Assembly: GCA_031400935.1 (NCBI GenBank)
Contig: JANNQV010000015.1
Span: 1-64,000, forward strand
Reading direction: 5' to 3'
DNA length: 64,000 bases
DNA from: Armatimonadota bacterium
GTDB taxonomy: Bacteria > Armatimonadota > Fimbriimonadia > Fimbriimonadales > Fimbriimonadaceae
Shown here piece by piece: positions 13,466 to 15,763 of the stretch (within the stretch, counting starts at the first letter, position 1; every line of letters starts with the position of its first letter). The notes beneath the pieces are model-generated. The model had not been told where the DNA came from. It saw only the letters and a list, made by a program, of their open reading frames with translations, and did no database searches. Made by a program: the position numbers and the translations under genes.

Positions 13466-13540
13466 TTTTGGTTCGGAATTGTGTGAAGTGAATGGTGGTT
13501 GCGGAACAGAGTTGAAGGCGGAGAGCGGAGAACGGAACCA

Positions 13541-13570
13541 AACCGAAAAACACCGAACAAATCCGAACAA
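13541..13570. repeat. Three phased 10-bp repeats NNCCGAAMAA
   Basis: aaccgaaaaa caccgaacaa atccgaacaa. Confidence 0.65.
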
Positions 13571-13635
13571 AAAACTCAGCTAAACTGAAAACGATTCTCG
13601 CCATACGATTCGTATAGCCAGAAGGAGGTGAATCC

Positions 13636-14766
13636 ATGAAATGCAAAATCGGGATAGCGGCGCTACTGTTGGGAGTTGTTTTGGGCGGTGCCCAGGCTCA
13701 AACTGCCGCTGCAGCCCCGCCCAAACCCGCCGACCCTTTACAAGCTGAGTTTGCGAATCTCCAAAAGGAGTATTTCGCGGCCCTTAACGAGTATTACAAA
13801 CCCTACGAAGCGGCAAAAACTGAAGAAGAATCTTTAAAGATCAAGCTCGATCCAGAAAAGAATCCTGCGAAACAGTTTTTGCCTAAGTTCCAGGCGCTTG
13901 CCAAAAAAGCTGAATCGAATCCGGCCGTTGGAGTTCAAGCTGAAGCCATGGTTTTCGACATGGCAATTTCGAACAACGACAGAAAGGCTGCCGATGCGAG
14001 TTTGAAAACGCTTTTTGGAAAGTATGCCAATGAGACAGGGGTGGTGCGAGCCTTGTATGGATTGCAGCAATACAACAACACATTCTTGATGGGTAAGGGT
14101 GGTGTGCCCGAAACGGAATGGATCCTTGGAAAGCTCAAAGACTTCCAAGCCAAGACTACCAATCGTGAAAACCAAGCGAGCGCACTCATGATGCAAGCCG
14201 AAGTCTTTGCGCCAGCTTATGGGCCGATGGTCGATGCCAAGAAGGGCGAAGCGATCCTACATGAGCTCAAAAACAAATATGGAGATACGCGAGCCGGAAA
14301 GCGGGCAGATGGAAGGCTGTTTGTAATCGCAAACCTCAATGTGGGGCAAGTTGCTCCAGATTTTGAGGTAACCGATGAGAATGGTAAGTCGTTCAAGCTG
14401 AGCGATTATCGCGGACAAGTGGTTGTGCTCGATTTTTGGGGATTTTGGTGAGGACCGTGCGTAGCGATGCTGCCCCATGAGAAAGAAATGGTAGTTCGAT
14501 TGAAAGACAAACCATTTGCACTCATCGGGATCAACAGCGATGGCGACCGGTCGGTTGTCAACAGTATTCTCAAGAAACAAGGCATTACATGGAGACAAGC
14601 TATTGATGGTTCCACAAGCGGCCCATTGGCCACAAAGTGGGGAATTCAAGGCTGGCCAACGATATTCATTCTGGATGCGAAGGGCGTGATTCGTTACAAA
14701 GACCTTCGCGATCAGGCGATGGAAGATGCAGTGAACACGCTTTTGAAGGAGATGCAACCAAAATAA
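13636..14766 (+). CDS. Exported TlpA/redoxin family selenoprotein with a UxxC active site (in-frame TGA at 14449-14451)
   Basis: ORFs 13636-14451 and 14467-14766 share a frame; junction reads LDFWGFW-TGA-GPCVAMLPHE; AAGGAGGT SD; signal peptide; cis-Pro motif GWPT downstream. Confidence 0.85.
14461..14473 (+). promoter_or_regulatory. Candidate bacterial SECIS hairpin for the 14449 UGA
   Basis: GTAGC-GAT-GCTGC stem-loop beginning 9 nt after the UGA; the stem is short. Confidence 0.4.
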
Positions 14767-14812
14767 ATGTGTCTTGGCCGTCTCGGCCAAGCCTGTTTGG
14801 ATTTTCCAATAT

Positions 14813-14843
14813 CCCCCTCTCTCTAGACCGAAGGGAGAGGGGG
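14813..14843. repeat. REP-like palindrome / bidirectional stem-loop
   Basis: CCCCCTCTCTCT...AGGGAGAGGGGG. Confidence 0.6.
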
Positions 14844-14887
14844 TTACTATTTCTCCACGTTTGAAGTGGAAGACAAACTACTTTAGA

Positions 14888-15763
14888 CTATTGAGCCGCT
14901 GTGGGTTTCGGTTTCGAGCCTTTTATCAGTCTTGCAAAGAGATACACAGCCGGACCCCAAATTGGCGAAAAGACCACCATCATGATCCCCAGCGAACCGA
15001 GAACTCGAACTACTCCACCCAGCATGGAAGTAGAGAAGTTCCAGCTTTCTTGCATCCAATTTGCATCGCTTGCCAATCCGCCTGCCTTGGCCTCTTGAAC
15101 CAATGTGAGTTCAATGTTCGAAAGCTGCGCCAGTCCGGAAAGCTCCTTTCGCTGCGAAGAGAGGCTTTCGATCTGCCCGCGCAGCTCCATCAATTCGCTT
15201 CTTAGGTTGATTGAATCTTCGATGCGCAATGATTGGAGCGATCGAATCATCTGCTCTTCTTGCACCTTCATCACGCGCAATCGAGCAGCGTAGTCCACGA
15301 GCTTTGCCGTCACGTCTTCGGTGCTGATCGCCTTTTCAAGCCTTCTGCCTTTCGATTCCATCCATCGAAGCGCCTCGTCGAATTTGTTCGAAGGAACTTG
15401 CAGCTTCATGGCAATTGTGGGAATGGTTGATTCCAAGTTGCTCGTTTGAGTCGAGGAGACATAGCCCCCAATTTTGGCAACGTAGTCGGCGATTTCGCGT
15501 TCAGCAGACTCGATTTCTGTAACTTTTAGGCTCAGTTTGCCATTTCTAATGACTGCTCGTTGGATCGAAAGATGTGCCTTGGGCGTCCCGCCCAAGGAAG
15601 CGGTTTTTCCTTGCGGGGCTTGACCGTCCCGGTCAAGATTCTCAGATTTGAGGGTTAAATTTTGCGAAGGGCTTGCTTGCGCCTCCATTTCTTGGCTTCC
15701 ACATCCTGCCAGCGCCATTGCTGCCACGATGATAGAAGCGATCCAGATTGTTGATTTGTGCAT
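14888..15763 (-). CDS. DUF4349 domain lipoprotein
   Basis: Lipobox LAGC; VIRNGKLSL and TEDVT motifs; coiled coil; C-terminal TM; GGAGGT SD before ATG 15763. Confidence 0.85.
   Translation of the reverse strand: MHKSTIWIASIIVAAMALAGCGSQEMEAQASPSQNLTLKSENLDRDGQAPQGKTASLGGTPKAHLSIQRAVIRNGKLSLKVTEIESAEREIADYVAKIGGYVSSTQTSNLESTIPTIAMKLQVPSNKFDEALRWMESKGRRLEKAISTEDVTAKLVDYAARLRVMKVQEEQMIRSLQSLRIEDSINLRSELMELRGQIESLSSQRKELSGLAQLSNIELTLVQEAKAGGLASDANWMQESWNFSTSMLGGVVRVLGSLGIMMVVFSPIWGPAVYLFARLIKGSKPKPTAAQ

Follow-up and report, generated by a model that had tools for sequence, protein, structure and literature searches.

A predicted redoxin selenoprotein of an Armatimonadota bacterium with a probable SECIS element displaced to 97 nucleotides after its UGA codon

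The stretch of DNA analysed here (the window, 64,000 nt) carries a single reading frame of 376 codons, from an ATG at 13636 to a TAA at 14764-14766, with only one internal stop, the TGA of codon 272 in the context DFWGFW-stop-GPC (Table 1). The first-pass annotation, made from the letters alone, had seen two open reading frames split by one TGA at the first Cys of a WCGPC motif, and this is what we find. It had also named a sequencing error as a possible cause. The region 13500-14900 is covered without a single difference by contigs of two DNA runs that may be the source sample (depths 28 and 36). The TGA codon is also crossed, again without differences, by a 214-nt contig of a third run in that study; the TGA does not come from a sequencing error. 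Two strong hairpins lie 3' of the stop codon, between convergent genes, at 14773-14791 and 14813-14843. The type of the latter is also found after several orthologues and resembles a repeat or terminator.

Table 1. Features of the locus, in positions of the window
Feature	Position	Strand	Basis
Shine-Dalgarno-like AAGGAGGT, 6 nt 5' of the ATG	13622..13629	+	sequence
Predicted selenoprotein gene, 376 aa (signal peptide, helical domain and TlpA/ResA-type redoxin, U272-G-P-C275)	13636..14766	+	frame, Pfam, conservation, model
Predicted cleavable signal peptide, residues 1-21, ending A-Q-A	13636..13698	+	hydropathy; cleavage site by inspection
All-helical N-terminal domain, residues ~34-233, presumed substrate-binding	13735..14334	+	structure model
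Thioredoxin-fold redoxin domain (ResA/TlpA/DsbE-like)	14335..14763	+	profile and fold matches
In-frame TGA, predicted selenocysteine 272 (attacking position)	14449..14451	+	frame, conservation, contig agreement
Cys275, presumed resolving cysteine	14458..14460	+	invariant in 74 aligned proteins
Small hairpin of the first-pass annotation, judged not to be a SECIS	14461..14473	+	predicted fold, loop GAU 14 nt after UGA
P1, long spacer stem in the mRNA between UGA and P2	14469..14538	+	folding comparisons
P2, candidate for a displaced SECIS: stem of 8 bp, loop GGUC (14549-14552) at 97 nt from UGA	14541..14560	+	folding, covariation, held-out genomes

By hydropathy, the sole hydrophobic stretch of the protein covers residues 3-20 and is followed by A-Q-A. 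The read-through C-terminal part passes the Pfam cut-offs of AhpC-TSA (PF00578, 79.9 bits against 26) and Redoxin (PF08534, 75.4 against 26.6), in agreement with the earlier proposal that the fold continues intact past the TGA. An AlphaFold2 model, built from 74 sequences with Cys in place of Sec at 272, reaches a pLDDT of 90.3 and consists of the helical domain (~34-233) and a ResA-like fold. Fold searches used the whole model, and their matches are filled by the redoxin domain: residues 236-373 match Bacillus subtilis ResA (2f9s) with Z 20.6 and an rmsd of 1.8 Å over 135 residues, and 1jfu with Z 15.7. Model and searches together place the W-x-x-W-C/U-x-x-C motif and the conserved cis-Pro position in a thioredoxin fold, and in 74 aligned proteins C275 and P341 are invariant while column 272 is at least 90% Cys. 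The helical domain matches nothing in Pfam or NCBIfam. The protein misses the curated NCBIfam cut-offs for ResA (PRK03147, 82.8/170), TlpA (NF047696, 43.3/230) and DsbE, as well as those for the selenoprotein families WAxxUGC_long (NF041054, 35.7/300) and redoxin_TUGYCR (NF053656, 26/100).

The protein resembles B. subtilis ResA, B. japonicum TlpA and E. coli CcmG/DsbE in its redoxin fold (residues 236-373) and extracytoplasmic CxxC-type layout, and differs from them in having a cleavable signal instead of a membrane anchor, an extra helical domain and Sec at the attacking position. By analogy with the chemistry of those proteins, it would be an exported thiol/selenol-disulfide reductase in which U272 is the nucleophile towards a disulfide or an oxidised thiol of a periplasmic substrate, C275 serves as the resolving thiol and a DsbD-type membrane carrier re-reduces the enzyme; the helical domain may pick the substrate. 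A DsbD-like gene with a TGA of its own lies in the same genome (G000, C45:91476 +). Conservation of the neighbouring genes ends at the genus level in the 17 loci inspected and gives no clue to the substrate, and no conserved link to cytochrome c genes was seen at these loci. UxxC selenoproteins with PF00578, PF08534 and cd02966 are already catalogued in the accessible part of PMC13188914 (its Table 1). They share the Pfam domains, the UxxC motif, UxxU variants and the alternation of Sec with Cys, and the protein is therefore of a known kind, although the catalogue's representatives are likened to it by domains and motif and it has, unlike them, a 200-residue helical N-terminal domain and a signal peptide. 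No paper on the family of this protein was found in the literature searched.

Among 61 related genomes, 13 have a match at E <= 1e-20, and all seven near-full-length matches (own genome included) have one TGA; the seven genomes concerned all have selA and selB. Close relatives thus keep the TGA, which is retained across families at 38-81% identity, and this speaks against the recent nonsense mutation that the first-pass annotation had considered. selA occurs in 41 of the 61 genomes, and none of the 20 without it has a full-length match, these genomes being kin rather than independent observations. Ten more matches, all with TGA, come from eight other genomes of a 401-genome phylum sample (G014 had already been counted); selB is found in five of the seven new genomes, selA and tRNA-Sec in a sixth, and tRNA-Sec only in the seventh (G309, 72% complete). 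In the best 80 of 518 metagenome loci, the motif is present in 77 and TGA stands at 83 of 87 sites, a count that leans towards TGA since the query was built from TGA-truncated proteins.

Four of 101 TGA sites read U-x-x-U (metagenome loci L094, L097, L110 and L115), with two UGAs three codons apart and one proximal hairpin for both. At L059:1128 + and L075:143 + are adjacent paralogues that have V-R-G-Y in place of the active site and look like redox-dead neighbours of a Sec copy. Planctomycete homologues have TGC or TGT in the motif WGFW-C-GPC, which gives the Cys/TGA alternation that had been suggested as a check. Singulisphaera acidiphila has eight matches, none with a stop; selA and selB were not found there, and RF01852 gives two borderline hits (47.4 bits, cut-off 47). 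The TGA column is precisely where 11 of the 120 database proteins listed come to an end, so annotation routinely splits the family.

Recoding implies Sec machinery, and the genome of this bacterium (2.97 Mb, 95.6% complete) has all four of the genes that the first-pass annotation had proposed to look for, each over its cut-off: selA (E 2e-115), selB (360 bits against 242), selD and tRNA-Sec (66.1 bits). selD carries its own TGA, in the context C-S-G-U-A-S-K. SelB is 614-615 aa long, and its C-terminus matches the SECIS-binding winged-helix domain (1wsu, E 2e-10). TGA is an ordinary stop for 883 of 2668 called genes. tRNA-ReC, or selC*, is a SelB-type tRNA with Cys identity and a U discriminator. 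The sole credible UCA tRNA of this genome has instead a G discriminator, a 6-bp D stem and a long variable arm, the layout of tRNA-Sec, which makes the earlier alternative of UGA-to-Cys decoding unlikely. Further UCA hits need relaxed thresholds and are flagged as possible pseudogenes; there is one ordinary tRNA-Cys(GCA), and a second SelB-type tRNA with Cys identity was not found in the 95.6% of the genome at hand. With the machinery complete, the TGA conserved, TGC/TGT alternating with it and U-x-x-U present in some members, there is good support for a single exported protein of two domains that depends on UGA recoding, and codon 272 is almost certainly Sec.

The gene has company. In at least eight other genes of the genome a TGA occupies a redox-motif position, with three candidates besides. 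A scan for read-through genes listed 245 candidates, of which 120 were inspected; an earlier dicodon scan was too weak and missed the gene described here. Likely selenoproteins are two thioredoxin-like proteins, an Rdx/SelW-like, a DsbD-like and a deiodinase-like protein, a BCP-type peroxiredoxin and SelD (G000 C25:65960 +, C27:218915 -, C39:27287 +, C45:91476 +, C35:36596 -, C51:77890 + and C15:156586 -), named by motif except for SelD and the peroxiredoxin, and each with a G-loop hairpin 17-37 nt after UGA. The three further candidates (C28:4435 +, C18:104959 + and C31:2369 -; contexts C-P-L-U, G-C-T-U and D-C-G-U) have good proximal hairpins with GGU, GUU or GUC loops. At C26:11198 + a strong coding signal stands on both sides of a TGA (Q-Q-S-Y-stop-L-K-A-G) with no Cys-like context, a possible pseudogene or other read-through. 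Separately, a tRNA-like gene with a UUA (ochre-reading) anticodon lies at C54:48148-48242 (L017:1500-1595), among transposase-like, NYN-like and unknown ORFs (names by eye). It has an 8-bp acceptor stem, a short T stem, a long variable arm, a G discriminator and a CCA end, and ARAGORN flags it as a possible pseudogene; TAA terminates 812 of the 2668 called genes. It resembles the allo-tRNAs, for which an ochre anticodon is on record in the accessible part of PMC7609411.

A bacterial SECIS, as modelled in the accessible part of PMC13188914, has an apical loop of 3-9 nt, a stem of 4-16 bp, a G in the first two loop positions, an energy of -7.5 kcal/mol or lower and 16-37 nt between UGA and apical loop, and a subset of genes fails this model. 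We found no convincing element of this kind in our gene. The small hairpin that the first-pass annotation had noted 9 nt past the UGA exists as a predicted fold, but its stability does not exceed that of synonymous-codon resamplings (over 36 nt, z -0.17, p 0.42), and an orthologue from the same genus (L020) lacks three of the five pairs; we rejected it as a SECIS, the likely one lying at +97. The best element in the 16-37 nt range, a CCAU/AUGG hairpin at +27 with a 4-bp stem and a 9-nt G-first loop, has only -2.6 kcal/mol and was rejected as well. Ten of the 11 other candidate genes of the genome have an element at -7.5 kcal/mol or better in this range, but the energy limit is a weak filter: of 150 Cys codons 43% pass it under free folding, as do 30% of 100 true stops. 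A structure signal upstream (-60 to -12) was dropped, being present in Cys genes also. Inspection of 19 genes by eye showed no 3'-UTR element common to them, Rfam has no match at 14400-14900, and the sequencing runs listed include none of RNA.

Most members of the family do have a proximal SECIS, a hairpin whose loop is C-GGUC-G or GUG and lies at +31 or +38 to +39. The common form lies in H-E-R-S-L-V codons (stem CACGAG-C, loop GGUC, +31) and a second register at +38/39. The codons of the common form are near-fixed: CGG 89%, TCG 98% and CTC 95%, against backgrounds of 19%, 26% and 45%. Default consensus folding of 72 proximal genes returned an empty structure, and we therefore counted pairs directly. 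Over the 72 genes with Leu at codon +13, the mean folding z is about -1.9 relative to synonymous resampling; over the 20 with Met at this codon, ours included, z is 0.0 at +0 to +60, and the structure signal of this group lies at +72 to +135.

At this distance our gene has a hairpin, P2, which spans +90 to +109, has a stem closed by C-GGUC-G and folds with -9.7 kcal/mol. P2 agrees with the bSECIS model in loop, stem, G position and energy, and with the loop pattern N1-G[G/U]-N-N2, and departs from it in spacing (97 nt against 16-37 nt). The consensus element of that model is the top of the stem that follows UGA, whereas P2 is a separate hairpin behind a long spacer stem. It is the only hairpin with a G[G/U] loop between +8 and +150 here (background 0.3% per 9-nt window). 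Taken by itself, P2 has no more than modest stability in this gene (z -1.4), so the argument for it is comparative. A strict hairpin filter at P2 is passed by 20 of 24 genes, where synonymous resampling predicts 2.6, and the loop departs from C-GGUC-G in five of the 24 distal genes. Both sides have changed in six of the eight P2 pairs, with a covariation score that none of 500 shuffles reached and that falls far lower in slid registers. The P2 codons are near-fixed (Arg33 CGG in 30/32, Ser34 TCG in 27/28, Asp32 GAC in 25/25), while over 32 genes the mean identity at third positions of codons 1-29 is no more than 48%.

Of 91 UGA genes, 67 have the proximal hairpin only, 19 the distal only, five both and none neither; by the filter applied, the distal hairpin occurs in none of 16 non-UGA genes, eight of which pass the permissive, bulge-tolerant proximal filter. 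In a quick tree, from which rows with fewer than 85 downstream residues were left out, the distal carriers cluster in a single 22-row group whose sister is the +39 group (SH-aLRT 93, below the tool's mark of 95). As the distal group is one clade, the exclusion between proximal and distal hairpins is one evolutionary event and Fisher p-values overstate it. To judge from sequence comparison, the SECIS was probably relocated once: a subclade would have swapped the family's proximal element (in H-E-R-S-L-V or E-L-V-E-R codons) for one in G-D-R-S-V-V codons.

A class-wide search matched 18 of 228 genomes, and ten new published genomes among them were kept as a held-out test; the unpublished genome G447 enters none of the counts or claims. 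All ten have the TGA and the P2 loop motif in the same codons, in one case shifted by 3 nt through a codon insertion; in two of the genes a single mismatch or bulge is enough to miss the strict filter. selB is present in nine and selA in eight of these genomes, while selA, selB and selD were not found in G446 (73% complete) despite its TGA gene. Within the 64-kb window, the covariance model R1 finds only its training site. Taken together, these results make P2 the likely working SECIS.

The spacer is itself folded. P1 covers +18 to +87 in this gene, and consensus folding pairs +17 to +41 with +60 to +82. The register of its base is all but universal in the distal group (31 of 32) and rare or absent elsewhere (3 of 72 proximal genes, none of 11 Cys genes), and its consensus energy is -18.9 against -6.4 +/- 1.1 in synonymous nulls (0/100). 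Gly26 is GGA or GGG in 31 of 32 distal genes (background 34%), and pair 21:78 alternates between U-A (16) and C-G (7); clear covariation is confined to 21:78 and 24:75. Several P1 pairs follow from the protein sequence, with 22:77 and 23:76 paired in 72/72 proximal genes too, and the spacer folds beyond the null in Cys genes also (z -1.7). With the first 11 nt (+1 to +11) masked, as under a ribosome at UGA, the mRNA folds into P1, two bases and then P2 (z -2.8), and both form in 28 of 32 genes, this one included. In the unmasked minimum-energy fold of this mRNA, +2 to +6 pair with the 3' strand of P2 and P2 is destroyed. Consensus P1 spans 66 nt, and 97 - 66 = 31, the family's common proximal spacing; the exact agreement is suggestive only.

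As far as comparison of sequences reaches, the frame, the conservation of its TGA, the Sec machinery and selection on two mRNA helices are established. Our model for their interplay is as follows. With a ribosome at UGA, +18 to +87 would be folded as P1 just outside the mRNA entry channel, and P2, at the base of P1, would have its loop about 27-31 nt of unpaired path from UGA rather than 97. SelB domain 4 would bind the loop and deliver Sec-tRNA; P1 may also hold the ribosome at UGA until P2 is transcribed and loaded, after which the ribosome would unwind both helices and complete the protein. We think P1 is probably needed to bring P2 close.

A second family has the same layout. The short exported TlpA selenoprotein at G000 C62:57621 + (L139/L198; further loci L199-L212) fails the proximal spacing rule. 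Counted over 16 parsed sites in 20 loci, a stem at about +12 to +49 is followed in eight of ten TGA members by a hairpin with a GG loop at +60/61, three TGA members have such a hairpin at +17 (one has both positions), and none of the six Cys members reaches -5 kcal/mol. The same design is thus found in two families.

As a whole, a selenoprotein gene with P2 as its SECIS and P1 folding the spacer away is the explanation we favour, with some reserve, and parts of it can be read otherwise. P2 could be the SECIS and P1 incidental, coded by the protein or serving to slow the ribosome, with SelB reaching the A site from 97 nt away by a flexible mRNA tether. The core pairs of P1, dictated by Pro and Gly codons and present in proximal genes too, the scarcity of covarying pairs and the excess spacer folding in Cys genes would fit this account, but the restriction of the register to the distal clade, the third-base bias at Gly26, the switch at 21:78 and the stem-plus-hairpin layout of the short TlpA family speak against it, and we judge it unlikely. 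We give a low probability to Sec insertion by a weak proximal element or without a SECIS, P1 and P2 being kept for mRNA stability or for pausing (export, folding). A hairpin can indeed be drawn at +27, and in the accessible part of PMC13188914 some bacterial candidates do not fit the consensus, and engineered systems can insert Sec without a SECIS. Yet the energy of the +27 element is poor, the group has no structure signal from +0 to +60, and P2 is absent from the non-UGA genes, has the loop of the family's proximal SECIS and appears exactly where the proximal one was lost.

UGA might be read as Cys by a tRNA of the tRNA-ReC/selC* type, or as Trp or Cys by near-cognate readthrough: the accessible part of PMC13582414 describes tRNA-ReC-like genes in some Armatimonadota genomes, and Cys is functional at column 272 in homologues. 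Against this stand the tRNA-Sec layout of the only credible UCA tRNA, the single ordinary tRNA-Cys, the many genes that end in TGA, and intact selA and selD, which make it very improbable. It is scarcely credible that the locus is a pseudogene, a sequencing error or a pair of proteins (271 aa, and 99 aa from the ATG at 14467), although gene callers divide it, database proteins end at the TGA column and a Met lies six codons past UGA in 27 of 32 genes. Several members lack this Met, no active site is contained in either half, the TGA is kept between families and the contigs agree. Moreover, G-P-C between UGA and Met is conserved with free third bases, so this stretch is translated.

SECIS elements outside their usual setting have reportedly been described. 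Su, Li and Gladyshev (2005) are reported to have placed one in the 3'-UTR in E. coli; that construct was reportedly engineered and still depended on closeness to UGA, whereas P2 is natural, in frame and distant. A 3'-UTR SECIS has also been said to occur in Cloacimonetes, a report that we did not find in the literature searched. Nor did a natural distant bacterial SECIS turn up in this literature, which included passages of PMC6267555, PMC8124441, PMC1794560, PMC2398784, PMC2792357, PMC10945757 and PMC7609411 and covered only part of the key papers; the novelty of the displaced element is therefore probable rather than established. According to the accessible part of PMC8659212, a bacterial SECIS must directly follow UGA so as to be already transcribed, which counts against P2. 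The survey in PMC13582414, in its accessible part, covered only 40-60 nt downstream of UGA.

The protein itself is almost certainly a real selenoprotein, an ordinary addition to a known class that is split by gene callers; its SECIS architecture is probably a new variant. More generally, we lean slightly towards the view that bacteria have a second, tandem-hairpin class of SECIS, in which the SelB hairpin lies in the coding region 60-100 nt past UGA and a conserved spacer stem folds the gap; redoxin genes in this lineage would have acquired it two or more times, moving the SECIS to tolerant codons and hiding such genes from prediction tools. A short, fixed distance between UGA and SECIS is a textbook difference between bacterial and eukaryotic or archaeal Sec decoding, and it constrains how selenoproteins can be predicted and engineered, since the codons next to Sec are taken up by the SECIS. 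An element at +97 would relax this rule. If our reading is right, such selenoproteins escape tools confined to 16-37 nt (or 40-60 nt) after UGA; part of the subset that fails the bSECIS model in the accessible part of PMC13188914 would gain a concrete structure; and there would be a design for placing Sec without altering the next ten residues. The family, with SECIS positions at +31, +38/39 and +97, makes relocation of the element traceable and testable by simple reporters.
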